Source: a virus
Taxonomy: Duplodnaviria > Heunggongvirae > Uroviricota > Caudoviricetes
Strand: one strand, 5' to 3'
IMG/VR virus record: IMGVR_UViG_2713896900_000011
Length of the DNA stretch: 31,386 nt
A model generated the notes under the pieces. That model was not told the origin of the DNA and made no database searches. It saw only the letters and a program-made list of their open reading frames with translations. The translations under genes were made by a program, and so were the position numbers. Positions 1 to 31,386 of the stretch are shown piece after piece (position 1 is the stretch's first letter; every line of letters begins with the position of its first letter).

Positions 1-219
1 TCACATCCACATAATTTGCTGCCCTGACGGCAACGGGTGCGGCCTTACGGCGTGGACTTCTCCCGGCTTCACGATGTATCGCTGTACCGACTCATAAGTG
101 ATGAACGTGGCGCTGCAATTCACGTTCTGACACTGGTGATAACGCTCTTTTGTCGTGTCAGTGATATAGCGGCTTGTACGCGCATGTGCGGCATTCTGGC
201 ATAAAGGACAATGAAACAT
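1..219 (-). CDS. ogr: Late transcription activator Ogr (C4 zinc-finger, 72 aa)
   Basis: Translation from the ATG at 217-219 gives MFHCPLCQ...CQNVNC...QQIMWM, which I recognise as near-identical to P2 Ogr with its four-Cys zinc finger. The ORF track's 93-aa version (1..282) adds an upstream extension that I do not think is translated. Confidence 0.9.
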   Translation of the reverse strand: MFHCPLCQNAAHARTSRYITDTTKERYHQCQNVNCSATFITYESVQRYIVKPGEVHAVRPHPLPSGQQIMWM

Positions 220-300
220 CGCGAGCACCTCTTCCGGTTTTGTTGATGTTGCCATTTTAGTTAATTTACCCTTATAAAACAAATAGATAAATAAAACACA

Positions 301-1464
301 TCACTCTTCATCTTCTGTTTCATACTCCACATCAGAAAGCCTGACCTCAAGCTCTAAGGACGTCGTGAAGCCGCTATTATTCAGAAAATGTGTCACCTTA
401 GTGATTGTCCAGTCCTGCTCGTCTATGACGCGCTTAAAGCCTGACACTCTGACCGGCGTTTCCGTGTAAATATCAGCCCGACCAGTGGCAAGGCTGATGG
501 AGAACTCCGCAACGCCCCGTTGCAGTTTGTCCCACTTCGCCTGAGCGGCGCGCATTGCCTGCGCTTTCGTGGCATATACCGTGGTCAGGGCAAAAACGTT
601 GTCAGCCCCACCGACCATGTATTCACCTTCGCGCGCTTCCGGTACTTTTGGTGCTTTCTTCTGCGTGACCGGTTTCGCTTTCGGGTGCTCCAGTGCGCGC
701 AGGTGTTTCTCTTTCTTTTTGCGTTTCAGTTTTACCTTCTGCTTTTGCGGCTTCGGGTCTTTGGTGTGTAACCACTTTGCCGTTACGCCGGTATAGGCTC
801 CACGGTCAGCAATCGCAAAATGATGACGGTCGCCGTCGCTGCGGGTGATGGTAATCTGCGGGATTTTTTTACCGCTGGACGTCACCCCCTGCCCCGCTTT
901 GAGAAACAACAGTTTTCCCATTTTTACCGACACCTCACCGCCGTTGCGTTCAGCAAGGCGGGTCAGGAATTTCGCATCAGACTCCTGCGACTGGTCGATG
1001 TGCGGGATTTTAATTCCGGCCAGTGACGGAGCAACACTGGCTTCCAGCCTGTTACGGGAGGCTATCGCCTCAACAATCGCACCGAGCGTGGTGTCATGCC
1101 AGGAGCCTTCCCGGCGGGAATTGAGCGTCCCGCGAAAATCTGCACTCCGGGCGCGGATGGTAACCACATCCGGTGCGCCCCGGTGTTCAACCTCATCAAC
1201 GGTGAATTTCCCTTTGCATACCAGGGCAAAACCTTTCCAGCCGATATACACCGTCAGGACAGCGCCACGAACCGGCAGCCCGACCTGCCCGTCGGCATCG
1301 TTCAGTTCAATATCAAGCTGGTCAGCCTCAAAGCCCCGGTTATCCGTCAGGGTCATGCTCATCAGACGGTCGCTGATATTGCCGGTAATATCCCTGCTGT
1401 CGAGCATCAGCATGTAATCCGGCGTCAGCGTACTGCCTGCATCAAATGTCAGCGCATCCAGCAT
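301..1464 (-). CDS. D: Tail protein D (387 aa)
   Basis: Size and position match P2 gpD (last gene of the FI-FII-E-T-U-D tail operon, next to ogr). Its start overlaps the U stop in an ATGA arrangement. Confidence 0.88.
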   Translation of the reverse strand: MLDALTFDAGSTLTPDYMLMLDSRDITGNISDRLMSMTLTDNRGFEADQLDIELNDADGQVGLPVRGAVLTVYIGWKGFALVCKGKFTVDEVEHRGAPDVVTIRARSADFRGTLNSRREGSWHDTTLGAIVEAIASRNRLEASVAPSLAGIKIPHIDQSQESDAKFLTRLAERNGGEVSVKMGKLLFLKAGQGVTSSGKKIPQITITRSDGDRHHFAIADRGAYTGVTAKWLHTKDPKPQKQKVKLKRKKKEKHLRALEHPKAKPVTQKKAPKVPEAREGEYMVGGADNVFALTTVYATKAQAMRAAQAKWDKLQRGVAEFSISLATGRADIYTETPVRVSGFKRVIDEQDWTITKVTHFLNNSGFTTSLELEVRLSDVEYETEDEE

Positions 1465-1943
1465 TATCCCGCCCCCGTCATACCCGTGAATTTAGTCGCC
1501 ATACTGCCAGCCTTACCGATGAGCGATTCTGCCTGTTTACCGATATCGCCATAAAGCGCGGCCAGTGATTCATCCACGCGGGTGAGCGACAGCGTAAAAT
1601 CAATTTTCCGGGGTGTGCCGTCTGCAAAGAAAATACTCCCTGTTTCACTCACACTGCTGATGACATACATGCCGTAAATCATGCCGGTGCCATCCAGCAA
1701 CGGCCACGCCCGGCCTTCCTCTGCCATCAGCCTGAGCGTGGTCATCGTCAGCTTCCCGCCGGTCAGTTCGGGATAAAGCACGCCGGCAAGCGTCATGTTT
1801 TCCTCACCCACACCGAGAAACTGGTAGGCATCCCGTTTACCGATACGGGAATTTGACGGCCAGCGATAATCTGATTCACGCTGCATGGTCTGGTGTGGCA
1901 GCGTCTGGCGCATAAAAACAAACATACCTAACGCGAGCATCAT
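1464..1943 (-). CDS. U: Tail protein U (159 aa)
   Basis: Size and synteny match P2 gpU, between the tape measure gene and D. Confidence 0.85.
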   Translation of the reverse strand: MMLALGMFVFMRQTLPHQTMQRESDYRWPSNSRIGKRDAYQFLGVGEENMTLAGVLYPELTGGKLTMTTLRLMAEEGRAWPLLDGTGMIYGMYVISSVSETGSIFFADGTPRKIDFTLSLTRVDESLAALYGDIGKQAESLIGKAGSMATKFTGMTGAG

Positions 1944-1957
1944 TTTTCGTCACCTCC

Positions 1958-4405
1958 TTAACCGTCATGCATCATGCTGGCACGGGCGCGCGCACGTTTA
2001 TCCCGCTCGTATTTTTCGAGCGCATCCTGTAACTGGCGGTCAAGCTGTGTCCCCGGCGCAGTACCACCCGTAAGGCTGATGTGATATTCGTTTTTACTCT
2101 GGTCCACATAAGAGCGACCAGCCGGTGCCGTGACCGGCTGATAAGCCTGATAGCCTGCATAAGAGCTGGTCGCCGGAATATAACCACTGCTGCCATACGT
2201 GGCGGCTTGAGTTCTGGCGGCGGTCTGGTCAAGTGTGTCTGACTCTTTGTTGATAACACCGAGTTTTTCCAGTACCCAGTCAATACCACTGCGCAGTTTG
2301 TTGAACGCATTAAGCGGCAGCATCAGCGCGTCAGCCAGTGCCTGCCCGAACATGACACCCGTGTCACGGCAACGGTTCAGGGTGTCCTGGGTGGCTTTAA
2401 CCGGGGCAGTCAGGTTTTTAAACCACTGCCACGCGGCCTGTAACTTTTCGCCCAGCCAGTCAAACACCGGCTTCAGTGGCGTGAACAGCTCCCCCACCGG
2501 CGCAAATGCCGCTTTCAGCCCTTCAACCACACCGCCAAAGAATGCGCTGACAGGCTCCCAGTATTTACGGATAAGCAACGCTCCGGCGACAATGGCGGCC
2601 ACCACGGCCACAACCGGCCAGCTAATCGCCCCGATGGCCGTCATAACGGCACTGCCAACCGTCGTGAAGATTGCCCCCATTGCGCCTGCTGCCGCTATGA
2701 TGGCATTGATGCCGGTGATAACCGGCCAGGCTACAAGACCAATGGCACCGATGATGCCAGTAAGCGCCAGTGCGCCACCGGCAATGATGCCGATGGTTGA
2801 CGCCAGTGATTTGTTTTTCTGTATCCAGCCGTCGAGTTTTAACACATACTTTGTGGCCGTCTGCGTGAGCTTACGCAGCGCGCCTTCCTGCTGGTCAAAC
2901 AGGTCAGTCCCCACCGCCTCATAAGCGGACTGAAACTCCTTAAAGTCACCGCCGAGGTTGTCCTGCATGATATTTACCAGCTCGGCGGTCTTCCCGTCTG
3001 AGGCTTTAAACGCAGCGGTCAGTTTGTCCAGCTTTGCGGTTGAGGCGGCAGTCATCAGCACGGCGGCGGCTGAGCTGGCCTCCTCCCCGAAAATGGTTTT
3101 CATGTATTCAGCCTGCTGGGCAGTACCGAGCCGGTTTTTCTCAAAACTGGCCTGCATTTCTTTCAGAATGGTAAATACTGGTCGGGTATTCCCCTTACTG
3201 TCTGAGGTTTTCACGCCAAGCTCTTTGAGTGCATCCCATGCTTTTCCCGTCGGTGCCTGCAGGCGACTTAACACGGCACGGCTTCCCGTCCCCGCCATTG
3301 AGCCTGTGATTTTTGCATCATGCAGCGCCCCGACCATTGCGGCGGTTTCTTCAATGCTGACACCGGCATTTTTTGCCACTGGTGCGGCATAGGTCAGCGC
3401 ATCGCTCATGCCGTCAAAATCGGCGGCGGTTTTGTTCATCGTCATGGAGAGAACATCCCCGATATGAGCGACCTTATCGTTTGAAAGCTGAAAGGCAGAT
3501 TTCATCCCCATCAGCAGAGCGGCGTTTTCTTCCATCGTGCGGCGGTTCGCCAGCGCCATATTCAGTGTGACCGGCGTTGCCGCCTGAATGGCATCAACAT
3601 CCCCACCGGCTTTCGCAATAATAATCTGCGCGCCGGCCGCATCATCCGCTGAGGCGGCGGTGTTGTCACCGAGCTGGCGCGCCTGCTTGCGTAGTGCAGC
3701 CATTTCGGCGGAGTCTTTTGCCACACCGAGCACAGCCTGCAATTCTGAGTTTTTCTGCGCAAACTCATAACCGGGCATCAGCAACTTAACTCCGGCCATC
3801 GTTCCCGCCGCCGCAATCCCCACACCGGCAGCGCCCACCGAGGCCATATTTCCGGCCAGCTCCTTTCCGGCCTGATAACGCTGTTTTACTGCGTTAAGTT
3901 TTGCCTGTTGTGCACTGACACGCGCCAGCGCGTCACGCTGACGGTTAAGCTGTGCGGTGGTTTCACTGATACGGTTTTTCAGTCCCTGCTCATCATGTGC
4001 AAGATTGCGGGTATTAATTCCCACAGCGGCCAGTTCCCGCTGCTGGCGTTTAACGGAATCCGTCAGGCGGTTATATTTCGCCTGTAAGTCCTCCGCCGCT
4101 CGCTTTGCTGATTCCAGCACTTTCGCCTGAGCACGTGTCGGACGTTCGGTGTTTTTAAACTGTGTGGCAAGGGCTTCGGCCTCCTGCCGTGCCTTTTCAA
4201 GTGCATGACCAGTCACGGCGAGCTGTGCACTGGTCTTGCGAAATCCCTCAATACGGGATGCCTGACCGTTCAGCTCGCGCAGTGATTTTTGTGTTTCCCG
4301 GATATCCCCCGACAGCGATTTGCTCGCTGTACGGATGGATTTAAACGGGCGGGATGCCTGGTCAACAGCCCTGAGCAATACCTGTAATTTTACATTGTTA
4401 CTCAT
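1958..4405 (-). CDS. T: Tail tape measure protein T (815 aa)
   Basis: An 815-aa protein with long coiled-coil-like Ala/Gln/Arg-rich stretches and a central hydrophobic Gly/Ala-rich segment, placed right after E/E'. This is the expected tape measure position and size for P2. Confidence 0.9.
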   Translation of the reverse strand: MSNNVKLQVLLRAVDQASRPFKSIRTASKSLSGDIRETQKSLRELNGQASRIEGFRKTSAQLAVTGHALEKARQEAEALATQFKNTERPTRAQAKVLESAKRAAEDLQAKYNRLTDSVKRQQRELAAVGINTRNLAHDEQGLKNRISETTAQLNRQRDALARVSAQQAKLNAVKQRYQAGKELAGNMASVGAAGVGIAAAGTMAGVKLLMPGYEFAQKNSELQAVLGVAKDSAEMAALRKQARQLGDNTAASADDAAGAQIIIAKAGGDVDAIQAATPVTLNMALANRRTMEENAALLMGMKSAFQLSNDKVAHIGDVLSMTMNKTAADFDGMSDALTYAAPVAKNAGVSIEETAAMVGALHDAKITGSMAGTGSRAVLSRLQAPTGKAWDALKELGVKTSDSKGNTRPVFTILKEMQASFEKNRLGTAQQAEYMKTIFGEEASSAAAVLMTAASTAKLDKLTAAFKASDGKTAELVNIMQDNLGGDFKEFQSAYEAVGTDLFDQQEGALRKLTQTATKYVLKLDGWIQKNKSLASTIGIIAGGALALTGIIGAIGLVAWPVITGINAIIAAAGAMGAIFTTVGSAVMTAIGAISWPVVAVVAAIVAGALLIRKYWEPVSAFFGGVVEGLKAAFAPVGELFTPLKPVFDWLGEKLQAAWQWFKNLTAPVKATQDTLNRCRDTGVMFGQALADALMLPLNAFNKLRSGIDWVLEKLGVINKESDTLDQTAARTQAATYGSSGYIPATSSYAGYQAYQPVTAPAGRSYVDQSKNEYHISLTGGTAPGTQLDRQLQDALEKYERDKRARARASMMHDG

Positions 4406-4825
4406 TCGTGTTTCCGCTTCGCCGGAGCGCCTTTTCGCGCCATGTGATGAGTTCGGTCAGGCTCATGGGATACAGTTCTGATGGCGGCCAGTGAAATATC
4501 ACTGCCACATCCGCCATCAGGTCATCGACCGAGAGATTTTTCGGGAACGTCACTGCACCGAGTTCGGCGACAAAAAACCGACCACCTTACCGGCCAGCGC
4601 CACAAGGTCAGGCAGTTCCAGCGCGGCGACTTCCTGCTCGGTCAGCATCGGTGCCGTCATGCGCGGCAGCACTTTAATCAGTGCATCGACTTCGGAGTTT
4701 GCAACCGCAGCCAGACTGACACCGCGCAGCGTCCCGGCACTGGGTTTCATCAGCGTGACCTGTTCGATAACCTGCTCACCACGTTTGACCGGATTGTCCA
4801 GGGTAATGACATTTTCTTTGTTCAT
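4398..4825 (-). CDS. E': Tail assembly chaperone E+E' (about 141 aa), made by a programmed -1 ribosomal frameshift
   Basis: The slippery heptamer T-TTT-TTG sits at 4571-4577 (minus strand, codons G-F-L of E). Hand translation of the -1 frame from there reads VAELGAVTFPKNLSVDDLMADVAVIFHWPPSELYPMSLTELITWREKALRRSGNTNE and ends at a TAA at 4398-4400, overlapping the T start. The length agrees with P2 E+E' (142 aa). Confidence 0.75.
4550..4825 (-). CDS. E: Tail assembly chaperone E (91 aa, in-frame product)
   Basis: A 91-aa ORF ending ...VGFLSPNSVQ, in the P2 gpE position between FII and T. Confidence 0.85.
   Translation of the reverse strand: MNKENVITLDNPVKRGEQVIEQVTLMKPSAGTLRGVSLAAVANSEVDALIKVLPRMTAPMLTEQEVAALELPDLVALAGKVVGFLSPNSVQ
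4571..4577 (-). other. -1 frameshift slippery site (TTTTTTG)
   Basis: Read directly: the minus strand gives GGT TTT TTG near the 3' end of E. Confidence 0.75.
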
Positions 4826-4881
4826 GGTTTTCTCACTTCTGAATCGGGGTTAACCGGTCAGCCAGGCTGACCGGATGAAAA

Positions 4882-5400
4882 TCACAGGCCGATATTGCGG
4901 CGGTGTTGCTCCAGCCGGTCGACGCCGTTCACCTTCTCAATCATGTTGATGGTGTCGATTTCGACCAGCTCCTTACCGTCCATCGTCAGCCGGAAATAGG
5001 TGCAGACCACGGAGATTTTCGACTCGGTGTCTTCTCCCTGTTTACCCTCGCCAGTGTCGATTTCTTTCTGACGTCCACGCATGACCACCTCGACGGCCAC
5101 CGTTTCGCCGGTATCGTCGCGCTGGTAAGAGCCTGCAAAACGAATCGGTACGGCATCCACACCGGTTGCGGCGTAAAGCTCCCAGATAACCGAATCCGGG
5201 AAGCCACCGAGCGACCACTCCATTGACAGCGCATCGTCATCAAGGCCGAGGTCTACCGGTGCGCTGCCGTTCATCCCCGCACCGCGATAGTTTTCGAGCT
5301 TACGGGTCAGTTTTGGCAGCGTGACGGACTTTGCAACGCCCTGATAGCTGTAGCCGTTCAGAAAGACGTTCATTAACTTGAGTTTGCGCGGCATTGCCAT
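4882..5400 (-). CDS. FII: Tail tube protein FII (172 aa)
   Basis: Size and synteny match P2 gpFII, immediately downstream of the sheath gene. Confidence 0.88.
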   Translation of the reverse strand: MAMPRKLKLMNVFLNGYSYQGVAKSVTLPKLTRKLENYRGAGMNGSAPVDLGLDDDALSMEWSLGGFPDSVIWELYAATGVDAVPIRFAGSYQRDDTGETVAVEVVMRGRQKEIDTGEGKQGEDTESKISVVCTYFRLTMDGKELVEIDTINMIEKVNGVDRLEQHRRNIGL

Positions 5401-5412
5401 CGGTCAGGCTCC

Positions 5413-6603
5413 TTAATTGCTGTTAACCGAGGTAACCAGACTTGCCAGGTATCTGGAAGTAATACGCTGGCGCAGGGTCAGGTTTTCGAGAGGAGGCACC
5501 GGGGTATAGTCGTAGTCGATATACAGTTTTCCGGCCTTGAGGGTTTCCGCATCATTGGCTTCTTCACTGAACCAGCATGTGCCATCCACGATATAACCGT
5601 TGTTTTTCAGTTCGCGGAATTTGGCATTAATGCCATCAATGATGTCACGAATCAGCGTTGCGGTAATTGGCTTATCAATAGCCCACATGTGCGCCTCGGC
5701 CATCGTGTCGGCCAGTACCTGCGCGGTGCGGGTGTAGCTTTCAAAGAGGAACAGCGGGTCATCAGAGCAGGTACGGTTACCCCAGAAGCGGAAGCCGTCG
5801 CGGCGAATCAGCGTAGTGATGCCTGACTCGTTAAGCAGGTCAGCATCAGTGCCGGACTTCTGCAAATCCCAGAATACAGAGGCGCTGATGCCGGTAACAC
5901 CATTTACCCCGACGTTGGACAGCGTTTTATGCCAGCCCTGCTCCTGGTCGATTTTGGCACGCAGCCCCAGCGCACGGGCGGTGGCATACGCGGTGGCAGT
6001 GGTACTGGTAACCGTATCCCATGCGAGGAAATCCGGCCAGATGACCATCAGCTCACGCTGGCTGAAATTCTGACGGTAGGCTTTTGCCTCGGAAATGGTT
6101 TTACAGCCCCATGCGCTAATATACCCGAATGCATTCAGTTCCTGGCATACCGATGCCAGTGCGACGGCAACCTCTTTGGTGTCCAGTCCCGGTACGCCGA
6201 GAATGCGTGGTTTAACGCCGGTAACCGACTCAGCCCCCATCAGGGCTTTCAGTCCGGTGTACTGACCGTTTTCGTCGGTGGTGCCGATGATATTGGAAAC
6301 GGTCTGCGCGAGTTTCGTTTCCTCGTCGTCGCCGGTGCCGTCTTCCACACGCACGACAACGGTGACCGGTTTTGACTGGTCGGCGATGGCCTGCAACGAT
6401 GCCGCCAGCGTGCCTTTTTTACCGGCCTTTGCAATTGCGCTCTGCACATTGGTTATCAGCACAGGTTTATTGAGGGGGAAGGTTTCCGCATCCGCATCGC
6501 TGGCCGTGCAGACCATGCCGACAATGGCAGTGGATACGGTGGAAATGACGCGGGTGCCGTCGTTAATCTCCAGCACCTGCACGCCGTGATGATAGTCACT
6601 CAT
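5413..6603 (-). CDS. FI: Contractile tail sheath protein FI (396 aa)
   Basis: Size and synteny match P2 gpFI, the first gene of the tail operon. Confidence 0.9.
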   Translation of the reverse strand: MSDYHHGVQVLEINDGTRVISTVSTAIVGMVCTASDADAETFPLNKPVLITNVQSAIAKAGKKGTLAASLQAIADQSKPVTVVVRVEDGTGDDEETKLAQTVSNIIGTTDENGQYTGLKALMGAESVTGVKPRILGVPGLDTKEVAVALASVCQELNAFGYISAWGCKTISEAKAYRQNFSQRELMVIWPDFLAWDTVTSTTATAYATARALGLRAKIDQEQGWHKTLSNVGVNGVTGISASVFWDLQKSGTDADLLNESGITTLIRRDGFRFWGNRTCSDDPLFLFESYTRTAQVLADTMAEAHMWAIDKPITATLIRDIIDGINAKFRELKNNGYIVDGTCWFSEEANDAETLKAGKLYIDYDYTPVPPLENLTLRQRITSRYLASLVTSVNSN

Positions 6604-6902: not shown

Positions 6903-8009
6903 ATGGATGTCAATGAACTTAGAGAGTTACTTATCAAGTATAATGGCCTTCAAAATACTGATGAAGTCTATACGTTTTATTATGATGAAACGAATAACAT
7001 TCGAAAACTATATTTAAAAGATTCTGGCTTTAATGTTGTAAAGGCGGATAACTTCATCCTTGCAGGAATACTACACAAAGGGTTAAGCACTGACAGCGAT
7101 TATTCAACCCTGTTTCAAAAGCTTAATCTTCAAAAAAGTGTCAATGAGTTAAAACTCAGATATATCGCTAAGGGTAGTTTTTTGGATATGCTTAAATCTG
7201 ATAAGCTTTTAATTATTCTAAACTGGCTTATCGAAAACAATTTCTACATCCATTATTTTAATCTTAATATCACATACTGGTCTATTATTGACATTGTTGA
7301 TTCTATTATTGGAGAGCTACACAATCCTTTTTATATCATGAACCACATGTCACTTAAGAGCGATTTTTATGAGCTTGCCAATAGCAATCCCGATGTTTTC
7401 CTGAATGCTCTACATAAATTTAACTACCCCGATATTCCAGAAGAAAAAATTTATGAGTTTTGCCTCTGGCTTATCGATTTTACATGCATGCACAGTTGTA
7501 TGCTGCCAGATTTTCGAGCACACGCACTCGAAAATTTGGTTAAAGAATCTCTAAAAATCGAAGAACTACCGTTCATATCGGGATTTCATGGTCGAAAACT
7601 GATCGATAGCTTTATGGTATTTTATTTAAGAAACTTGTATCTATTTAAAAATTCCGTTCACATATTTGATGAAGAAAAAAGCATTCAAGATGAAGTTAAA
7701 AACTTCCCGTTAACTGAAAATGGCATACCAATACAGAATCATGAATTCGTTAAATCCCACAACTCAGAGGCTATCCAACTATCTGATGTTATCGCAGGCT
7801 TTTTGGGTAAGTATTTTTCTTACTTAAAAGATGTAAATGACGAGCAATTAGCGATTGATAAGTCAGCCTTAACGAGCAAGCAATTTAAGACCCTTTCTGC
7901 GTTAAAACACATTATTGATGTTTCTGATGATGTTAGCAGAGGATTTTTTAATGAAGTTAGCAGCGAGGGAGAGCGACGGAGAAATAATCGTTTTTTACAT
8001 GGCGTATAA
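6903..8009 (+). CDS. AT-rich cargo protein (368 aa) at the Z/fun-equivalent locus; DUF3800-like motifs; candidate anti-phage/abortive-infection protein
   Basis: A visibly low-GC gene on the opposite strand to the flanking late genes, with a strong SD. The N-terminal motif YTFYYDETNN and the C-terminal motif AIQLSDVIAGFL resemble the conserved DESG and QxADxxAG motifs I associate with DUF3800. The family assignment is from memory, not a search. Confidence 0.6.
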   Translation: MDVNELRELLIKYNGLQNTDEVYTFYYDETNNIRKLYLKDSGFNVVKADNFILAGILHKGLSTDSDYSTLFQKLNLQKSVNELKLRYIAKGSFLDMLKSDKLLIILNWLIENNFYIHYFNLNITYWSIIDIVDSIIGELHNPFYIMNHMSLKSDFYELANSNPDVFLNALHKFNYPDIPEEKIYEFCLWLIDFTCMHSCMLPDFRAHALENLVKESLKIEELPFISGFHGRKLIDSFMVFYLRNLYLFKNSVHIFDEEKSIQDEVKNFPLTENGIPIQNHEFVKSHNSEAIQLSDVIAGFLGKYFSYLKDVNDEQLAIDKSALTSKQFKTLSALKHIIDVSDDVSRGFFNEVSSEGERRRNNRFLHGV

Positions 8010-14855: not shown

Positions 14856-14869
14856 GGTGTTTACTCCGT

Positions 14870-22165: not shown

Positions 22166-22182
22166 GTATTTTAGATAATAGC

Positions 22183-22200: not shown

Positions 22201-22219
22201 TTATAGTTCAGAAAAACAC

Positions 22220-22867
22220 TTATTCCTTCGGTTCATGATAGAAGTTTATGGGATAATGAATCACTTCATAATCTAAATTTGATACAGAATGTTTATGAGT
22301 ACTATAAAATACTAGTGGATTCTTATCACACTGCTGAATATTTATTTCTCTAGACGCATGAATTTTGGGCGCATTTTTAGTCAAGTAGGCAATATACTGT
22401 TGCATTACAGCAGAGCAAAGCTTATTTTTTGTATAGATAATTACACCACCCGATGCACTATCAACAGTCCCTGTACTATATCGCTCAGTAAGTTGCGAAT
22501 ATCCCTTAAAAAGGTACGAATATCCTGATGAGTGTTTCTTGGCTTCGCCATGCCATGTAAAATCTGCTAATTGAATTGTAATATCGCAATGACCGCGCTG
22601 ATTAACTTCATGATAAGCTCTTATCCCTAAGAATTCGTTATCTATTATTCCCAGAAGATGAAGTGTCAATTGGTCTTCGGTAAGTTCAAAGCCCATTTTG
22701 TTTGCATTTTGCTCAATTTTTCTTACTGCATAATCAAGTAACTCACGAACAAAAGCCTTAAAGTTATTATAAGATTCCATAGCATATGTCACCGCTGTAA
22801 GAATCTTATTAGCATTATCTATTACGTTATTTTTACGAATATCTGCCAGACTGAAACGTTGGACCAT
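22220..22867 (-). CDS. Cargo operon gene 3 (215 aa): hypothetical protein with a possible PD-(D/E)xK-like nuclease motif
   Basis: AT-rich. Its ATG lies 1 nt after the gene 2 stop and is preceded by a GGGGAG Shine-Dalgarno. The segment GHCDITIQLADFTWHGEAKK has the D-x13-E-x-K spacing of a PD-(D/E)xK core; this is an inference only. Confidence 0.6.
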   Translation of the reverse strand: MVQRFSLADIRKNNVIDNANKILTAVTYAMESYNNFKAFVRELLDYAVRKIEQNANKMGFELTEDQLTLHLLGIIDNEFLGIRAYHEVNQRGHCDITIQLADFTWHGEAKKHSSGYSYLFKGYSQLTERYSTGTVDSASGGVIIYTKNKLCSAVMQQYIAYLTKNAPKIHASREINIQQCDKNPLVFYSTHKHSVSNLDYEVIHYPINFYHEPKE

Positions 22868-22868
22868 G

Positions 22869-23288
22869 TCAACTCCCCACTTTCTTTAAAGAAAAGAAGG
22901 GGAAAATGAAATCCTCATAATCAGTTAAAATATCACCTGTTACAGGATGTTCAAATATATGATTTTTTTCCGCATCCATAACCTCACCAACGGTTACCGG
23001 ATAAAAATCGTCATTTTCATCAACAAAAAAATACTCCAATCTTAAAAGACTTACTTTAGGATTACATAAAACCTGAATGGCGATATAAATTTTATCGTTA
23101 TTTATTTCATCCGTAAAAGAAAGATTACCACCATTCTCTTTGATATACAGATTAACAAGATCTGGATAGCTCATTAAACAGTTTTTTTTACATTGCGGGG
23201 AGAGCTTCATCAATGCATTATAGAGAGCGCATGCGATTTCACCGACATTCGCATCAGTAACGCATATTTCTTTAATAATGTCTGCCAT
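22869..23288 (-). CDS. Cargo operon gene 2 (139 aa): hypothetical protein
   Basis: AT-rich. I take the start as the ATG at 23286-23288 (MADIIKEI...), preceded by a strong GGGAGG Shine-Dalgarno. The track's start 5 codons upstream overlaps that SD. Confidence 0.6.
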   Translation of the reverse strand: MADIIKEICVTDANVGEIACALYNALMKLSPQCKKNCLMSYPDLVNLYIKENGGNLSFTDEINNDKIYIAIQVLCNPKVSLLRLEYFFVDENDDFYPVTVGEVMDAEKNHIFEHPVTGDILTDYEDFIFPFFSLKKVGS

Positions 23289-23316
23289 TGATTTCCTCCC
23301 CATACCTACTACCTTC

Positions 23317-24480
23317 TTAAACGATTAAACTCATTAAACGTTCAAAATCGTCCCGTCCCAGACAATTATTAATAATAGCATAGTTTACTGACGTGGAGCT
23401 AGAACCTCCGAGGTAACGGCGAAGAGAGCCGGGAATGATCAACTCAAGATCATCATCTAGTGATAGAAGCACATTCACTCTTGAAATTTTTATACCAATC
23501 TTGTAAAGACCTATCTGCCCTACTGCTTTAATTCCTTCTTGGTTAAAGATATCATCACGCAAATCTTTTTTTGCTTCTTTTTTCTTTTCCTGATGCGTAG
23601 TTCCCTCTGGAGTATAGAAAGATAATTCAAAAACTTGATAATCGCTTGCATTAAAAGGATAGGTGTTTTGAGCAAAAATTTGTTCAATTAGAGGGAAAAA
23701 GTCTTTTTCTGTCGAAACAAAATCAGCCCCCATATAATCGTATAATTTTCTAACAATTACGGTTTTAGAAAATGTAATTGTCTCTCCAATAACATTTTTG
23801 GGAGCATCAATAAGTATATTGATAGTGTTATCTTGTATATTTAAAATACAAACATCAAAACATTGTCTTCTAACTTTCTTTTTGGCTATGATTTCATCGT
23901 AGCTTTGATATTGTGGGATTGTTTGCGGTGAGACCTTTTCTTTTATTACTTGCTCCCTGACTGATGAAAAAAGGGCTATCACTTGATTGCTGTCAGTAGA
24001 GCAAAAGATTAGTTGAGGGCTATTTTTAGGTGTGGATAATAACTGTTGCTCATTAAGAATGTAACTTGATACATTTTGTAAAATAGTAGTGTTTGCCCAT
24101 TCTGTCTGAATGGCTAAGCTTAGCCCTGTCATGGTTGGAGCATCAATTGCCAAAGAAAAAATAGCCTTATCGCCATAGAAAAACTGACTAAAAAGAAGGT
24201 CATTAATTTTCTTTAACAATGAGTCAAATTTAACTCTGTCCGTGTCTCTAATTTCAATCAACTGCTCTTTAACTTTATTAAAAGTCGCATCCTTACCGCG
24301 ACCAAGAGAAAAACCTAATGACGACAAAACAGATTTTACTATAGACCAACTTATTCTATTAAATAGACAATTCAGACTTTTTAGTTCAATGTCAGACAGT
24401 GACGATTGTACTGTATTATTTGCTGCTAATACAGCCTGAGGGACAGATGAATTTACTGTTGTAGGGACAATGCCTGTCAT
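23317..24480 (-). CDS. Cargo operon gene 1 (387 aa): hypothetical protein
   Basis: AT-rich. The track ORF begins at a TTG at 24525; the first ATG (24478-24480, MTGIVPTT...) has a GGAG Shine-Dalgarno about 6 nt upstream. I recognise no domain. Confidence 0.6.
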   Translation of the reverse strand: MTGIVPTTVNSSVPQAVLAANNTVQSSLSDIELKSLNCLFNRISWSIVKSVLSSLGFSLGRGKDATFNKVKEQLIEIRDTDRVKFDSLLKKINDLLFSQFFYGDKAIFSLAIDAPTMTGLSLAIQTEWANTTILQNVSSYILNEQQLLSTPKNSPQLIFCSTDSNQVIALFSSVREQVIKEKVSPQTIPQYQSYDEIIAKKKVRRQCFDVCILNIQDNTINILIDAPKNVIGETITFSKTVIVRKLYDYMGADFVSTEKDFFPLIEQIFAQNTYPFNASDYQVFELSFYTPEGTTHQEKKKEAKKDLRDDIFNQEGIKAVGQIGLYKIGIKISRVNVLLSLDDDLELIIPGSLRRYLGGSSSTSVNYAIINNCLGRDDFERLMSLIV

Positions 24481-24598
24481 TGCAAACTCCAGTTCCGCTA
24501 ACAAAACCTCTAAGAATATTGGCAAGCAAGTATCTTCAAATATCAGGGAAAGTCAATCCAATAGCTCTCTTTTTGCGATGGGAAACTGTTAGCGCGCA

Positions 24599-24617
24599 GT
24601 GCTTTCCCCGCCTCGCC
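24599..24617 (-). other. cos site (19-nt cohesive-end sequence)
   Basis: The minus strand reads GGCGAGGCGGGGAAAGCAC, which I recall as the P2 19-nt cohesive end. Confidence 0.75.
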
Positions 24618-24944
24618 TGCCCGCTTTATGGGGCGGTTTTAATGCAGATGCACGAACACGCCGGAGGCGCGCCAGCACCGGCGGCGCTCACACGTGACTT
24701 GGAAGGAAAACGCATGCGATTCGATGCAATAATGCATGCAGAGCTAAAAATGGCAGAACATACTGAAAAAACGCATAAAAAAACGGCATTCAGGTTGCCG
24801 GTTTGAGTCGGCTTCATTGTGGTTACTGGCCGCGCTATGCGCCAATAATACCAGGAGTCAATCTGATAACCAGCTAACGCCTCGCTACGCTCGTTGTTCA
24901 ACCCCGCCAGCCCTGAAAACAAGTTTCACGACTGGCGGCGTTCT

Positions 24945-25606: not shown

Positions 25607-25608
25607 TT

Positions 25609-27888
25609 TCACTCCATTACTGTTGAGAATCCCGGCCACTCATCAGCGACCGGATACGTGAATTTTTTCCCGTCATAATTTACGGTCGCGCCACGCGCCA
25701 GCGCCTCAAGCTCCCATCGCTGCGGCCTGATACCGTTCTGAGCAAGGTCAACGCGGATACGGGTAATTTGCATTCTTTCCGACCGGGTCAGTCTGGCCGA
25801 TGGTGCAATTTCATGTGGTTTTAACGGGCTTCCGTTTCTTTGCTGACGACTTGGCGTTCTCCGACCGTGTTTTAATGCACCTCTGAGCGCCCTCACGACC
25901 TCCGGGTCACTCCATTCGATAACACCGTCATCAACCAGATTAAGCACTGCTGCGGCGTGCTCAGAAGGTGTGGGAGCCGGTAACGAAGTATCACCACCGG
26001 TGAGTTTTCCACAGTTATTGACAGGACTCCGAGGCGCGGCGATGCCGCTTTTTAACGTCAAAGGCTCAACGACCGGCACTTTCGGAACAATGCGCCAGTC
26101 CGTCGTTCTGGTGATATGAATATGACGCGCGCCGAGATGCGGCGCGTAAATGCCGACCACTCTCTCGACTTCTTCCTCGTACTCGTTAACTTCATCCGAC
26201 GGGCTACGGGCGACTCTGACAGTCTGGCAATCACGCGGAACATTTGCCCCACCCTGCGCGCTGATATACAACGCAAAATCACCACTGTCTGCGGCGGCAC
26301 GTGCAGCCTCAACGCGTTCGTCAAACTCATCAGCAATGCTGACGCCGCGAGGCAATTTGCGTAGTTCACGGTAAGCCCCCATTGTCGGCAGACCAACCGT
26401 TTTAAATTGCGGAATGCGCCACGTTGACGCCCATGCGGTAACAGCAGCAGCTGTGTCTTTCAGCGGCCTGCCGGTATCGTTATCGAGCTGCCCATCCAGT
26501 GCATAGCCGTCGATGTTTTTTGAAATGTATTTCGCGATATATCCCGCTGCACCGCCCCGGTTAAGGTGTTTTGCCTGAAAACGGTTTCGCGCGGCTCCTC
26601 TTTCGTCGCCATCCTCTTTGAGCGCATAGCGACGCATGATTTCGATAATCTGGTTACGCTGGCGTGGATTACAAAAAAGCATCATATGCCAGTGCGGTGT
26701 TCCATCGTGGTGTGGCTCGACGACTCGCAAACCGTAGACCTGTAAATCATTATCCTTGAATGCCGTGCGCATCAGGCTCCAGATACGGCAGAGATAACGC
26801 TGCGCATCCTTTGGATTAAATGCCTCATCGTTCCAGCCGTGATTTAGCTGGACGGTTTTACTTTCGCCTTTTCCGACCTGACGTGTCGGGTGATACTTTG
26901 ACGGCGTGGTCAGCGTGATAAACATCCCCACATCGCCCTCTGCGGCGGCGTAACGCTCAATACCGGCAATGGTGTTCATCAGCTCCATCCGGCGAATTTC
27001 TGGATTAGAAATACTGCCCATCACCTTACTGATAAGGTCGATGCGCTCGCCGGTTTCCCTGTTTTCAAGGTCACACGATTTAAGAAATTCCAGATTTGCC
27101 TGGCGGCGTGCACGCACATCACGAATGGCATGTTTACTGGCATAAGGAGAACGGTCTTTATTGACCTCCCCGACAGCAATCAGTAACGCCTCATGCCAGC
27201 GCATACGCTGGCCTTTAAGCTGACTAATCCACCACTCATCGTTAAACAGACGGGCAATGGCAGAATATGCCTGCCTCGTGGTCATCTGTCCTTTACGGTA
27301 TTTTTTCCAGTAGAGAGGGGAAATATTGAAAGCACGTGCAGCGCCAGCAACATGACCATAGAGGTGAGCCTGCGCCTCATCCGTAAACAGCGATTCTTTT
27401 TCGCCATGCGCATCCACCCAGGCATCGCAGAGTTCCTCATACATCATGAAAAGCTGCGATGAAATACGGGCGGCAAACTTTTTCAGCTCCTTATCATTCA
27501 TCCCCGGCAGACGCGCATAATGGTCACGCTCTACCAGAAACAGCAACGACGCGTCGGTATTCATTTCATGGCGCTGATTCACGCGCTCAATGCGCGGCCA
27601 TAAACGACGCTGAAAAGTGGATGTGAGGAAATAAAACCCGTGCACCGGGCTTTTATTGCGCCGGATGTAGTCATAGCGTGAAGTAAACAGCGAACGCAAA
27701 AAGTAAGGCAGGCGGTTAATCGTGGATAAAACACCTTGCACCTGACGCATCTCGTCACGTGTAAGGGGTCTTTCGCGCCCGACGGCCTCGCGTGGCGCGT
27801 TCCATGCATAAGCACCGGTAAACGTCTTACCGGTGCCTGCGGCAAATGCTGACGGAGGGACAAAATGCCCGGAGGCTTTAACGGCCAT
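25609..27888 (-). CDS. A: Replication initiation protein A (rolling-circle initiator, about 759 aa)
   Basis: The start MAVKASGHFVPPSAFAAGTGK... matches my recollection of the P2 gpA N-terminus (P2 gpA is 761 aa). The track's ORF starts 14 codons upstream at 27930. Confidence 0.85.
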   Translation of the reverse strand: MAVKASGHFVPPSAFAAGTGKTFTGAYAWNAPREAVGRERPLTRDEMRQVQGVLSTINRLPYFLRSLFTSRYDYIRRNKSPVHGFYFLTSTFQRRLWPRIERVNQRHEMNTDASLLFLVERDHYARLPGMNDKELKKFAARISSQLFMMYEELCDAWVDAHGEKESLFTDEAQAHLYGHVAGAARAFNISPLYWKKYRKGQMTTRQAYSAIARLFNDEWWISQLKGQRMRWHEALLIAVGEVNKDRSPYASKHAIRDVRARRQANLEFLKSCDLENRETGERIDLISKVMGSISNPEIRRMELMNTIAGIERYAAAEGDVGMFITLTTPSKYHPTRQVGKGESKTVQLNHGWNDEAFNPKDAQRYLCRIWSLMRTAFKDNDLQVYGLRVVEPHHDGTPHWHMMLFCNPRQRNQIIEIMRRYALKEDGDERGAARNRFQAKHLNRGGAAGYIAKYISKNIDGYALDGQLDNDTGRPLKDTAAAVTAWASTWRIPQFKTVGLPTMGAYRELRKLPRGVSIADEFDERVEAARAAADSGDFALYISAQGGANVPRDCQTVRVARSPSDEVNEYEEEVERVVGIYAPHLGARHIHITRTTDWRIVPKVPVVEPLTLKSGIAAPRSPVNNCGKLTGGDTSLPAPTPSEHAAAVLNLVDDGVIEWSDPEVVRALRGALKHGRRTPSRQQRNGSPLKPHEIAPSARLTRSERMQITRIRVDLAQNGIRPQRWELEALARGATVNYDGKKFTYPVADEWPGFSTVME

Positions 27889-28153
27889 GTGAGCCAAAAG
27901 CCTCTGAACAACGCTTGCTGAGTTGCTCAACCTGCGCGTTTAAATCAGCAAAAGATTTTGCGCTTCCGGTCAGAATATCGTGATGCATCATGCCGGAAAC
28001 GAGCTGGCTTAATTTCGGGTAATAACCAACCACCGCCAGCCATTCCTGACCGGCGTTTTTACCGCTTTCCGCTCTCTTTTTCTCGTGGAGAATAAACTGA
28101 AAGCTGTCACTGGTAACGACATAACGTTCGCCAACTTCGATACGAATACTCAT
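27878..28153 (-). CDS. Hypothetical early-operon protein (91 aa)
   Basis: A small ORF directly upstream of A on the same strand, in the position of the P2 orf80-83 cluster. Confidence 0.5.
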   Translation of the reverse strand: MSIRIEVGERYVVTSDSFQFILHEKKRAESGKNAGQEWLAVVGYYPKLSQLVSGMMHHDILTGSAKSFADLNAQVEQLSKRCSEAFGSHGR

Positions 28154-28374
28154 GCCATTCTCCGGTAATGCTTGTTTTTTGCTTCAAAGACTGACTGGCA
28201 GGAAACACAACGCGTGGCTGACGGATAAGCCGCACGACGGGCAGCAGGTATTGGCGCATCACACTCTTCGCAAACCAGCGCAGAAGCACAGCAATGTTTT
28301 ACCCTTGCCGCGTTAATCTGGCGCTCCAGTAATTCAGCCTGTTGTTCCTGAATGAAATCTACGTTGTCCGGCAT
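28150..28374 (-). CDS. DksA/TraR-like C4 zinc-finger protein (74 aa)
   Basis: It has a C-x2-C ... C-x2-C arrangement (CEECDAPIPAARRAAYPSATRCVSCQ) typical of the TraR/DksA zinc-finger family, and sits in the early operon between B and A. Confidence 0.6.
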   Translation of the reverse strand: MPDNVDFIQEQQAELLERQINAARVKHCCASALVCEECDAPIPAARRAAYPSATRCVSCQSVFEAKNKHYRRMA

Positions 28375-28679
28375 TACCAGTTCCTTTTGTCGTTCAGTTT
28401 CTTAAATTCATCAGCGCAATAGCTGGCGATTTCTGTCGTTAATTTTGTCAGTTCATCCACGGAGGAAATTTGCTTGTGAAATACAGCGCGTTTAACAAGT
28501 AAATTGACCACATCAGACAGGAGGTTTAATTCATTCTGATAAATCGCGATAACAGATTCAGTTATGTCGCGTTTTTCTTTATCAAGACAAAGTTGAATAA
28601 GAGACAAATCGCCATTTTTCATAACGGCGATTTTTAAGGCGTTATTCAGTAATACAACTGAATGAGAACAGGACATCAA
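28374..28679 (-). CDS. Hypothetical early-operon protein (101 aa)
   Basis: A contiguous small ORF in the B-A interval with a start/stop overlap to its neighbour; it looks somewhat AT-rich. Confidence 0.45.
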
Positions 28680-28900
28680 AGCACCTCCCCGCGAGACAAT
28701 CCGATATTGTGAAATTTTTCCGACTCCTGACTGAGCAGCTCGACTATCTCCACGCGGGATAACTCCGCCTTTGTGATATGGCGAATCATGGCGTCAAGAT
28801 GAGAAGAAAAGCGCGTCGCAGCATCGGCCTGTGCTTCGGTTCTGGCCTGTTGCAGCAGTAATGCGTATTTACCGCACTGATTTTCAGAAACTGTATGCAT
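28676..28900 (-). CDS. Hypothetical early-operon protein (74 aa)
   Basis: A contiguous small ORF downstream of B on the same strand. Confidence 0.45.
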
Positions 28901-28963
28901 GACTTTCTCCAGGCAAAAAGAAGCCCCGCACGATTAAGTGCGTTAAAAACTCTGGTTAATTAC

Positions 28964-29464
28964 TTAATGCAGATATTGCTCTGGTTTTACCGATGTCAGA
29001 ATTGTCGGTGCATACTCAAACAGGCTGAATAATTCACGTAATGCACGGAATAAAGCATCACGCCAGTAACATGATTCTTCATTAATTCGCCAGTACGGCT
29101 GGTTGAATTCTTTTTCTGTCAGTCGAGCGTGCATAAATAAAGTACGACGCTGGCTGACTGTTAAAAAACTAATATATGCATACTCACTTGCACCAACCTG
29201 ACGGCGTTTTGAGAATGCGCCACGCAATTCATCAATTGCACAAACCAGTCGTTCACGTTCGACGTCGTTCATTTCTTCAAAACGCATCGTTGCGTGACGC
29301 TGTTTTAACTGTGCATGAAAGCAAACCGTTAGCCGTTCGCGCTCCATCATCTGATTATAATAATCACATGTATCCTGCCAGCGAGGGACGGCAAGATGCT
29401 TGCCAATTATCCGGCGCATAGCTGCTGGCTGTTTTTCAACGAGATTGAGCGTCATCACTGTCAT
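28964..29464 (-). CDS. B: Replication protein B (166 aa)
   Basis: Size and synteny match P2 gpB (166 aa), between cox and A. Confidence 0.85.
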   Translation of the reverse strand: MTVMTLNLVEKQPAAMRRIIGKHLAVPRWQDTCDYYNQMMERERLTVCFHAQLKQRHATMRFEEMNDVERERLVCAIDELRGAFSKRRQVGASEYAYISFLTVSQRRTLFMHARLTEKEFNQPYWRINEESCYWRDALFRALRELFSLFEYAPTILTSVKPEQYLH

Positions 29465-29658
29465 TTCCAGACCCTCCGGCTTTTCAGAAAGGTCAGAGCC
29501 TTTTTTAACGGACTCTGTTTTTTGGTGCGGATAATGATTCCCTTGCGTCCCTTCCCGTGGGTGATGGTGAAGTCAATCGCCCTTGGGCTTTCGTTACGCA
29601 ATAACTGAGCAATACAACGCGGCTCATTCATAATCACAACCCCATCCACAAAAGCCAT
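29461..29658 (-). CDS. Hypothetical small protein (65 aa) between cox and B
   Basis: A small basic ORF with start/stop overlaps to both neighbours, in the position of P2 orf78. Confidence 0.45.
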   Translation of the reverse strand: MAFVDGVVIMNEPRCIAQLLRNESPRAIDFTITHGKGRKGIIIRTKKQSPLKKALTFLKSRRVWK

Positions 29659-29921
29659 GCATCACGCTGTTCAACCGGTCGGTTATAAAACGCCTCACGT
29701 ACAGCGCGATTAAACTCAGGAATGAAAACCCATTTTTCACCGGCACGAGCCTTCGGTTTGCAAGGATCACGCAATTCAATAATTGGTAATTTATTTGCCT
29801 TCACCATTTCACTGACGGCTGTCTTTGGCTTCCCTAATAAATCAGCAAATTTATCCACATGAACCGCATCAAGCGGATACTGAATCACATAATTTTCAGC
29901 GTCCATATATGGTACCCTCAT
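29634..29921 (-). CDS. cox: Cox (excisionase / repressor of the lysogenic promoter), about 90-95 aa
   Basis: The C-terminal half (...GEKWVFIPEFN...RDAWLLWMGL) resembles P2 Cox (...GEYWVYLPAWN...RDGWLMWLGL) as I remember it. It is the first gene of the early operon, divergent from C. The start may be the internal MDAENY. Confidence 0.8.
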   Translation of the reverse strand: MRVPYMDAENYVIQYPLDAVHVDKFADLLGKPKTAVSEMVKANKLPIIELRDPCKPKARAGEKWVFIPEFNRAVREAFYNRPVEQRDAWLLWMGL

Positions 29922-30042
29922 AGGATCCAGCCCTTTCTAAACCACTCAAAACCGTTTAGACGCTGGTTTATTCTCAAATCAATGGAACCTATATAGGTTC
30001 CAGTTTTGAGGGAATTTAGTCCCTATATAGGCACCATGTCAA
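29922..30042. promoter_or_regulatory. Immunity switch region (divergent Pe/Pc) with two CCTATATAGG palindromes
   Basis: An 18-bp perfect palindrome GGAACCTATATAGGTTCC at 29984-30001 and a second CCTATATAGG at 30022-30031, 34 bp apart, in the 121-bp gap between divergent cox and C. Confidence 0.6.
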
Positions 30043-30336
30043 ATGAAATTAAGCGAAAAGATTAAGGCCTTGCGTGAGGCTGAAGGGCTAAGCCAATCAA
30101 AATTCTGTGAAATCATAGAGTTACCGCTAAGCACACTTAAAAAATATGAAGGAGGAAACTTTGAACCCGGTGGCACAGCTTTGCTAAAAATCACTATGCA
30201 TCCCACATTCCAAAAATATGCTCTATGGCTTATGACAGATAAAACCGCGCCGGACGCAGGACAAATCGCACCGGCTCTCGCGCACATTGGGCCAGAGTCA
30301 ACAGAGTCCAACCACTCCGCGAAAAGGATTGGCTAA
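30043..30336 (+). CDS. C: Immunity repressor C (97 aa)
   Basis: The size and the C-terminal motif (...FQKYALWLMTDKTAPDAGQIAPALAHIGPE...) match P2 C repressor (...FTKYTLWFMTNQIAPESGQIAPALAHFGQ...) as I remember it. It is divergent from cox and upstream of int. Confidence 0.85.
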   Translation: MKLSEKIKALREAEGLSQSKFCEIIELPLSTLKKYEGGNFEPGGTALLKITMHPTFQKYALWLMTDKTAPDAGQIAPALAHIGPESTESNHSAKRIG

Positions 30337-30405
30337 CTCTATATAAAGATTACATTTTCACCATTTGCTACCAAGATGGTGAATACAGCGCCGGAGGGCT
30401 TTCTT

Positions 30406-31386
30406 ATGGCAATTAAGAAGCTCGATGATGGTCGCTATGAAGTGGACATTAGACCTCGCGGTCGCGACGGAAAACGCATCCGCAGGAAATTCGAAAGAAA
30501 AGCTGAAGCACTAGCATTTGAGCGATACACAATCGCCAATGCCAGTCAGAAAGAATGGGGAGGCCAGCGAGCAGACCGCCGAACTTTGAGTGAGTTGCTG
30601 GACATCTGGTGGAAATATCACGGGCAAAACCACGAGCATGGAACAAAAGAGTTTAATCATCTACTCAAAACCATCAGCGGCATAGGTGATATACCAGTGA
30701 GCAGGATGAGCAAAAGGGCTTTGATGGATTATCGTTCCATGCGACTACGTGATGGTATCAGTGCCGCAACGATAAACCGTGACATGTACCGATTATCCGG
30801 CATGTTCACAAAATTAATTCAATTGGATGAATTTTCCGGGCAACATCCAATTCACGGACTGCCGCCACTGGCGGAGGCCAACCCTGAAATGACGTTCCTG
30901 GAAAAAGCAGAAATCGAAAAACTGTTAAATGTTTTGGCTGGTGATGACTTACTTGTCGCGCTTTTATGTCTGAGCACTGGAGGAAGATGGACGGAAGTTG
31001 CCACGCTAAAACCAGCACAGATTACAAATTGCAGGGTTACCTTCCTGAAAACCAAAAACGGTAAAAAGCGAACCGTGCCGATTTCTGAGGAACTGGAGAA
31101 AAAAGTTAAAGAGGAGGCCAGCGCCAAATTATTCAAAGTTGATTATGAGAAATTTTGCGGGATTTTACGCAGAGTGAAACCTGATATACCACCCAATCAG
31201 GCAACCCACATCCTGCGGCATACATTCGCAAGCCATTTCATGATGAATGGGGGCAATATAATCGCACTGCAACAGATTCTGGGACATGCGAGCATTCAGC
31301 AGACGATGGCCTATGCGCACCTTGCGCCTGACTACCTGCAAAATGCCGTCGCTCTGAATCCACTAAAAGGCGGAGTGACGTTATAA
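30406..31386 (+). CDS. int: Tyrosine integrase (about 326 aa)
   Basis: The C-terminus carries the tyrosine-recombinase catalytic region (...HILRHTFASHFMMNGGNIIALQQILGHASIQQTMAYAHL...). I prefer the ATG at 30406 (MAIKKLDDGRYEV...) because it has a GGAGGG Shine-Dalgarno; the track's start is 30376. The gene ends at the last base of the window. Confidence 0.85.
   Translation: MAIKKLDDGRYEVDIRPRGRDGKRIRRKFERKAEALAFERYTIANASQKEWGGQRADRRTLSELLDIWWKYHGQNHEHGTKEFNHLLKTISGIGDIPVSRMSKRALMDYRSMRLRDGISAATINRDMYRLSGMFTKLIQLDEFSGQHPIHGLPPLAEANPEMTFLEKAEIEKLLNVLAGDDLLVALLCLSTGGRWTEVATLKPAQITNCRVTFLKTKNGKKRTVPISEELEKKVKEEASAKLFKVDYEKFCGILRRVKPDIPPNQATHILRHTFASHFMMNGGNIIALQQILGHASIQQTMAYAHLAPDYLQNAVALNPLKGGVTL

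Follow-up and report, generated by a model that had tools for sequence, protein, structure and literature searches.

The closest described relatives of the DNA analysed here are phage P2 (NC_001895), L-413C (NC_004745), a plaque-forming phage of Yersinia and E. coli, and the isolated Peduoviruses fiAA91-ss and STYP1. One integration site is common to Wphi and L-413C, according to Nilsson 2011 (PMC3448106). P2 and its satellite P4 feature hotspots for defence genes. In Rousset 2022 (PMC9122126) and PMC13586616 the P2 hotspot is defined only as 'between A and Q', and the Z/fun locus is also listed as variable. A cos core of ~55 bp is described as common to P2 and P4 in PMC9594776 and PMC9122126. 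The stretch under study is the virus record IMGVR_UViG_2713896900_000011 of IMG/VR. It spans 31,386 nt, is denominated hereafter the window, and corresponds to the whole gene-bearing part of a prophage, bounded by the stop codons of ogr and int. In all probability this is a complete, correctly integrated P2-like prophage without visible defect. As judged from the sequence it is an ordinary, structurally intact member of the very common P2 (Peduovirus) kind, and it is reasonably likely to be able to make infectious particles. About one third of the complete E. coli genomes (1692 of 5426) match the tail sheath and fibre-assembly genes of this phage, and the integrase module is present in 790 E. 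coli genomes. The prophage as such is of little importance. Its practical value is that of a cleanly delimited example, in which att, cos, ori and all the genes are mapped. Its two cassettes sit precisely where anti-phage genes are kept in P2-like phages. The potential for discovery is confined to a three-gene cassette, called here cargo 2, and to its P4-like position.

Gene content and cis-acting sites

The 42 annotated P2 genes were translated and compared to the window by tblastn. Full-length, stop-free matches, each found once and in the P2 order, were obtained for 32 proteins (Q, P, O, N, M, L, X, Y, K, lysA/B/C, R, S, V, W, J, I, FI, FII, E, T, U, D, ogr, B, A and orf78/80/81/82/83), with 91-100% identity. 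A preliminary description of the window had listed the core P2 genes as single, intact, and canonical in order and size, in agreement with these matches. The int, C and cox genes are present but diverged (52, 43 and 43% identity, respectively). H is P2-like in residues 1-251 only, G in its C-terminal half only, and the C-terminus of orf91 is unlike that of P2. The non-essential P2 genes orf30, fun(Z), tin and old found no match in the window. The window reads in the opposite sense to the conventional P2 map. Genes on the left are ordered ogr-D-U-T-E/E'-FII-FI, cargo 1, G-H-I-J-W-V-S-R-lysCBA-K-Y-X-L-M-N-O, P-Q. Q is followed by cargo 2, cos, orf68-orf91-A-orf83..80-B-orf78-cox and C-int. The GC content of the backbone is ~55%, and drops to 34-37% at ~6.6-8.1 kb and 22.2-24.5 kb. 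Both edges had been placed inside phage genes, with the start falling within the 3' end of ogr. This has to be amended. The ogr gene is complete (72 codons, 219..4), its stop being bases 1-3, and the last three bases are the int stop codon, as had been correctly noticed. Since the window starts and stops on these two stop codons, neither terminal gene is truncated, and the edges lie at gene ends.

Many cis-acting sites are conserved. The 19-nt cohesive end GGCGAGGCGGGGAAAGCAC is found exact at 24599-24617, on the minus strand, within a 62-bp match to P2 (24585-24646). Over 441 bases, the E/E' region has 3 differences from P2. The slippery sequence GGTTTTTTG is intact, and the -1 product, 142 aa long, is 100% identical to P2 E+E'. 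Both the cos site and the E/E' frameshift proposed earlier are hence in place. The A protein, the rolling-circle initiator, is 97.6% identical over 759 aa, and the ori nick context inside the gene is conserved at 31 of 31 positions. The terminator located after B has one mismatch to P2. Scanning the window for the P2 sites pV and pF and the terminators tO, tV and tQ, allowing up to 6 mismatches, found none of them. The lack of tV and tQ is explained by cargo having replaced those stretches, that of pV and pF by the L-413C-type sequence of the S-V and FI-upstream regions. The 66-nt spacer between S and V, and likewise the 160 nt that precede FI, are in fact nearly identical to those of L-413C, which similarly lacks orf30. 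As L-413C is plaque-forming, they are normal variants, not damage. Essential P2 genes and checkable sites (cos core, ori, E/E' slip, the pO/pP Ogr site, attL/attR and the arm repeats) are shown to be intact. Where essential genes or sites depart from P2, sequence comparison shows the same version in plaque-forming relatives. Rfam and tRNA scans of the window gave no matches.

A megablast search against 50,697 phage records yielded 217 matches. The best are the Peduoviruses STYP1, fiAA91-ss, P24A7b, P22H4 and Wphi (95-97% identity over ~80% of the first 25 kb), and the 96-97% nucleotide identity to classified Peduoviruses supports the assignment to Peduoviridae, genus Peduovirus. The best DNA matches, fiAA91-ss and STYP1, are 96.7-96.9% identical across 83% of the first 25 kb and have the same att core. 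The former hosts the same DUF3800 gene (95% at the amino acid level) and the latter the same H+G segment (93.8% at the nucleotide level), but cargo 2 is missing in both. For every protein, identity to either P2 or some isolated relative reaches 90% or more and, by sequence, every part except cargo 2 has a counterpart in some isolated phage.

P2 and the window are alike in the order and sizes of essential genes (91-100% protein identity), and are identical in the cos 19-mer, ori, E/E' slip and pO/pP. They differ in the int/C/cox module (43-52% identity) and the attachment site, in the C-terminus of H and in G. In the window, moreover, orf30 is lacking, a DUF3800 gene replaces fun(Z), old and tin are missing, cargo lies on the opposite side of cos, and other sequence stands in place of tQ and the 170-bp Q-cos spacer. 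L-413C is 96-97% identical at the nucleotide level over 1-6809, 9899-22120 and 25110-31386, and shares int-C-cox, attP (266/273), the 47-bp core, the S-V spacer devoid of orf30 and the pF region. Unlike the window, L-413C has its own H/G module, its own gene at the Z/fun locus, a 993-nt open reading frame (ORF) on the A side of cos and a normal Q-cos spacer of 188 bp.

The features of the prophage, except those of the Q-cos region which are given below, are as follows.

1..219, minus: ogr, late-gene activator of the Ogr/Delta zinc-finger type, 72 aa, complete; P2 Ogr residues 1-72 aligned at 98.6%
253-282, minus: ogr promoter; -35/-10 region matching P2 with 2 mismatches
301..6603, minus: F operon tail genes, all full length, 95-100% to P2
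301-1464, minus: D
1464-1943, minus: U
1958-4405, minus: T
4550-4825, minus: E
4398-4825, minus: E+E', -1 frameshift at ~4570
4882-5400, minus: FII
5413-6603, minus: FI
6903..8009, plus: cargo 1 at the Z/fun locus, 368-aa DUF3800 protein; GC ~34-37%
8109-8687, minus: G, tail fibre assembly, 192 aa; only partial match to P2
8687-10504, minus: H, tail fibre, 605 aa
10515..13909, minus: baseplate and tail completion genes, full length, 95-100%; orf30 absent
10515-11045, minus: I
11038-11946, minus: J
11951-12298, minus: W
12295-12930, minus: V
12997-13449, minus: S
13442-13909, minus: R
13872..15648, minus: lysis cassette, full length, 91-100%
13872-14162, minus: lysC
13947-13965, minus: lysC attenuator, exact match to P2
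14017-14442, minus: lysB
14430-14855, minus: lysA
14870-15367, minus: endolysin K
15367-15648, minus: holin Y
15652-15855, minus: X, full length, 98-100% (as L and M)
15855-16364, minus: L
16464-17207, minus: small terminase M
17211-18284, minus: capsid N, full length, 98-100% (as O)
18343-19197, minus: scaffold O
19277..19307, minus: Ogr site shared by the divergent late promoters pO/pP, 31/31 identical to P2 3057-3087
19371-21143, plus: large terminase P, 99.8% to P2
24945-25151, minus: 68-aa ORF, phrog_11386, function unknown; annotated as a gene in the source contig, like the next one
25151-25606, minus: orf91-like protein, 151 aa, DUF3850/ASCH and DUF7415
25609..29631, minus: early operon, full length, 94-100% to P2
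25609-27888, minus: A
26015-26045, minus: ori nick context inside A
27878-28153, minus: orf83
28150-28374, minus: orf82
28374-28676, minus: orf81
28676-28900, minus: orf80
28964-29464, minus: B
29461-29631, minus: orf78
29634-29906, minus: cox, L-413C type
30043-30336, plus: C, 97-aa repressor, L-413C type
30406-31386, plus: int, 326 aa, L-413C type

The protein encoded by cargo 1 matches the PADLOC candidate PDC-S51 (E=1.2e-106 over residues 2-366), the Pfam family DUF3800 (E=2e-7, 32.2 bits vs a cutoff of 21) and phrog_15126, and 351 of its 368 residues are identical to orf20 of fiAA91-ss. A literature search found no functional test of DUF3800/PDC-S51. DUF3800 is mentioned in studies on retron-associated genes (PMC7736814) and on rare CRISPR-Cas systems (PMC10910872). 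The H and G genes align with those of Salmonella phage STYP1 in a single gap-free match of 2396 nt, and the predicted host-range module (H/G) differs from that of P2.

Integration site and host

The flanks of the prophage were taken from contig BBVK01000010.1 (GCA_001514685.1), retrieved through exact matches of gpD and gpA, which is 100% identical to window positions 1-11464 and 15609-31386. The genes fieF, pfkA, sbp and cdh are found beyond ogr, and cpxP, cpxR, cpxA, yiiM and sodA beyond int. A perfect direct repeat of 47 bp, GATAAAAAAAACCCCCACATCATGTGGGGGAAGACAGGGATGGTGTC, is located between fieF and cpxP, at -157..-111 before and +117..+163 after the window, the core-to-core length of the prophage being 31,659 bp. 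The preliminary description had predicted that attL/attR and the host target lie just outside the window, and had suggested extending the flanks as a check. The extension revealed the att core repeat, 111-157 nt before and 117-163 nt after, and the fieF/cpxP host locus, and no truncation.

Joining the phage-side halves rebuilds an attP of 273 bp, 266 of which are identical, in a gap-free alignment, to the int-ogr spacer of L-413C. The two arm repeats TGTCCACATAG(T/C)GTCCACA lie within the rebuilt attP, as does the ogr terminator. The attB site obtained by joining the host-side halves is present without interruption in 4590 of the 5426 complete E. coli genomes. A core with 100% identity is carried by 55 phage records, among which Wphi, L-413C, fiAA91-ss and P2_AC1. 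By sequence, the tyrosine integrase has inserted the prophage at the known Wphi/L-413C site between fieF and cpxP. None of the 5426 complete E. coli genomes exceeds 97% identity to the host flanks, which suggests that the host genome belongs to a somewhat divergent Escherichia lineage.

The cassette between Q and cos

Cargo 2 might be, although this is put forward tentatively, a new three-gene anti-phage system, mobile between P2-like and lambdoid prophages of Enterobacterales, and hosted in a sub-hotspot on the Q side of cos equivalent to that of P4. The features of the region are listed here.

21143-22165, plus: portal Q, 340 aa, 97.9% over 340/344 residues
22183..22200, both strands: terminator-like hairpin between Q and cargo 2, 7-bp stem with 5 GC pairs
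22220..24480, minus: cargo 2, three-gene cassette, ~34% GC; phrog_12777, 11490 and 9664, function unknown
22220-22867, minus: 215-aa protein, possible PD-(D/E)xK nuclease
22869-23288, minus: 139-aa protein
23317-24480, minus: 387-aa protein, RdgC-like predicted fold
24556-24529, minus: promoter-like site ahead of cargo 2
24591..24646, minus: cos, with the 19-nt cohesive end inside the ~55-bp P2/P4 core

In the window cargo 2 separates Q from cos. The joints were defined by aligning the window to an 'empty' prophage (CUPF09), P2, L-413C and P4. Similarity to P2 breaks off at 22122, within the final ~45 nt of Q, and does not start again until 8 nt short of cos. Conservation extends for 29 nt on the A side, and what remains corresponds to the ~55-bp core common to P2 and P4. 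The P4 hotspot (gop-beta-cII) is found at the identical joint, where cos is followed by (T/C)GCGCGC; the window has TGCGCGC. In P2, the interval from orf91 to cos houses old and tin, and the spacer between cos and the Q stop, which contains tQ, is 186 bp long. Like old/tin of P2, the extra ORF of L-413C and the Rousset clones hp+hp+hp and DprA-PRT, the two clones with readable sequence, are located on the A side. Cargo 2 thus falls in the A-Q interval and cargo 1 at Z/fun, and both resemble the cargo of P2/P4 hotspots for low GC content and lysogen-type orientation. Cargo 2, however, is not among the systems tested in Rousset 2022 (PMC9122126), and the Q side of cos is the P4 position. The stretch 24653-25109 is unlike both L-413C and the other prophages bearing cargo 2.

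The last ~45 nt of Q (22122-22165) are recoded with AT-rich synonymous codons, and the tail of the protein is kept except for G->D and R->K changes and the loss of four terminal residues. Because the Q tail is recoded yet conserved as a protein, the cassette may have arrived together with the 3' end of Q. This suggests that cargo 2 entered by recombination between Q and cos, the donor being a diverged P2-like phage and one joint apparently falling within Q itself. The hairpin that follows Q is terminator-like, and is a new candidate terminator replacing tQ.

In the assembly collection, 225 index blocks contain the exact 215-aa protein. Ten loci bearing it were examined, and all feature a 340-aa Q and the same Q/cos joint. 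These are ~98% identical relatives, P2-like prophages inserted at three att sites (pflA, yegS, cpxP). As the same cassette and joint occur in otherwise complete prophages at three sites, phages with this layout plausibly spread. Another P2-like prophage of E. coli has, next to its portal gene, a variant of cargo 2 that is 51% identical. In K. pneumoniae GCA_053895705.1 (locus L025, 7001-9219) a homologous cassette encoding proteins of 368, 139 and 221 aa, ~50% identical, is carried by a lambdoid prophage, with the O/P replication genes on one side and the nin/Q region on the other, which suggests that the cassette moves as a unit between unrelated phage backbones. Among the 5426 complete E. 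coli genomes, cargo 2 is found only in STK77-E, with different int and cargo 1. Homologues of the cargo 2 proteins are all unnamed and confined to Enterobacterales.

Two loci deserve a separate mention. In the first (L010; GCA_005400045.1, BIDJ01000004.1, 5156-10648) the A side of cos, itself at 8251, is occupied by a distant homologue of Rst_3HP (36/29/19% identity) and the Q side by cargo 2, so both sides can be filled together. The second (L012; GCA_044950565.1, 10703-14583) is degraded. Its portal gene is shortened to 301 aa, and U, D and ogr come immediately after it, most late genes having been deleted, with cargo 2 and the early region retained.

The cargo 2 proteins matched no PADLOC, Pfam or NCBIfam family, and profile searches of the 387-aa and 215-aa proteins against PDB sequences gave nothing meaningful. 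The AlphaFold (AF2) model of the 387-aa protein (predicted local distance difference test score, pLDDT, 84.9) retrieves by Foldseek RdgC (PDB 2owl; E=5e-5, probability 1.0), with a TM-score of only 0.32-0.40 and a root-mean-square deviation >10 A. RdgC is a recombination-associated, ring-forming DNA-binding protein of E. coli. The likeness is one of predicted fold, as the 387-aa protein has no sequence match to PDB or Pfam. In the 215-aa protein the residues D95, E108 and K110 are invariant in 35 homologues. The top fold matches of its model (pLDDT 89.7) are Bax1, EcoRV, McrC, Cap4 and a phage restriction endonuclease, none with E<=0.001, and the protein is possibly a PD-(D/E)xK nuclease. It is a reasonable guess that cargo 2 combines a DNA-binding sensor and a nuclease effector. 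The identification of cargo 2 with the hp+hp+hp system of Rousset (Rst_3HP) was considered and rejected, the best blastp match having E=0.08, with no PADLOC match.

Cargo 1 and cargo 2 both sit at known P2 variable loci and would accordingly travel with the phage, as anticipated in the preliminary description. Lysogeny would transmit the two cassettes, provided that the phage is viable. That cargo 2 is found on the P4 side is a hint as to how defence genes might pass between helper and satellite. If this is true, cos would be a shared recombination joint for helper/satellite cassette swaps.

Viability, induction and assembly

In the life cycle proposed for the prophage, lysogeny would be maintained by the C repressor with no SOS link. 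The lytic switch would occur only spontaneously or upon inactivation of C, for example by the P4 epsilon protein. Int and Cox would excise the prophage at the 47-bp cores, and replication from the ori nicked by A would be followed by packaging from cos. Packaging would carry along both low-GC cargo loci, which the lysogen probably expresses to keep other phages out.

It is improbable, but deserves discussion, that the prophage is cryptic, i.e. intact-looking but defective, either because the Q-cos replacement weakens terminase recognition or termination of the Q operon, or because of missense changes. Several data weigh against the ability to form particles. By alignment, the ~170-bp Q-cos spacer found in P2, L-413C and empty prophages has been replaced, tQ included, and only ~8 nt of P2 sequence are left on the Q side of cos. 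Since longer cos flanks improve the transduction of P2 cosmids in one engineering study (PMC9594776), packaging could be less efficient. The base adjoining the cos cut on the A side (24618) is A (GGGCA|GGCGAGG), and is G in P2, L-413C, P4 and the empty prophage; the same A is found next to cos in two Klebsiella P4-like clones of Rousset Table S2A (PMC9122126). No isolated phage among the 50,697 records carries cargo 2. Missense defects, finally, may occur despite the open frames.

The main uncertainty on viability is the Q-cos replacement; the precedent of P4 and the spread of the layout make it less serious. P4 is packaged by the P2 terminase with the same ~55-bp core and has unrelated cargo at the joint (PMC9594776, PMC9122126). 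The candidate terminator hairpin after Q, and the Q tail conserved as protein, similarly speak against a defect. The layout is found in complete prophages at three att sites, and its 51%-identical variant in another P2-like lineage. The level of protein identity to P2 or isolated relatives also argues for function, and the truly degraded relative L012 looks quite different. On these grounds a functional prophage is preferred.

The prophage had been described as inducible, with mitomycin C proposed as a check, but this expectation is not supported. A 186-type prophage, SOS-inducible and responsive to mitomycin C, would be in accordance with the general habit of temperate phages, and 186 is a relative with many late genes in common. 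Induction of 186 runs on the LexA-controlled Tum protein and non-inducible phages are stated, in general terms, to rely on spontaneous induction (PMC7708051). When Tum, CI, Apl, CII, Fil and Dhr of 186 were compared to the window by tblastn, however, the best match had E=0.02 over 25 residues. Among the proteins used in the 186 switch search only Int (38%) and B (61%) match the window. Neither CTGT-N8-ACAG nor the AT-rich form CTG-N10-CAG, i.e. no LexA box, was found in the window. The repressor is a 97-aa P2-type C, encoded divergently from cox, and the int-C-cox segment is 99.5-99.8% identical at the nucleotide level to L-413C, P24B2, vB_YpM_50 and others, as well as to 429 E. coli genomes. 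The switch is of the P2 C/Cox type, presumably with no SOS link, which makes the 186-type alternative very unlikely. It is well established that P2-type prophages, which lack the Tum/LexA mechanism, are not inducible by SOS, and release phage only spontaneously. Because the switch is P2-type, with neither Tum nor a LexA box, induction by mitomycin C is not expected, even if the prophage is functional.

That the window is a chimera of several P2-like prophages, as could result from a draft genome when such prophages are common and up to 4 occur in some genomes, is hardly credible, because an independent Logan assembly of DRR017187 is 100% identical over the part compared (window 1-11464), the mosaic joints Q-cargo 2, cargo 2-cos and FI-cargo 1-G are each present in other genomes, and the two flanks rebuild a normal attB. 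The Logan contig DRR017187_17 is 31,672 bp long, which by calculation is the length of the prophage extended at each end by 30 nt of the 47-bp att repeat. The possibility that this contig represents an excised circle was rejected, as its length fits a break of the k=31 assembly graph at the att repeat.

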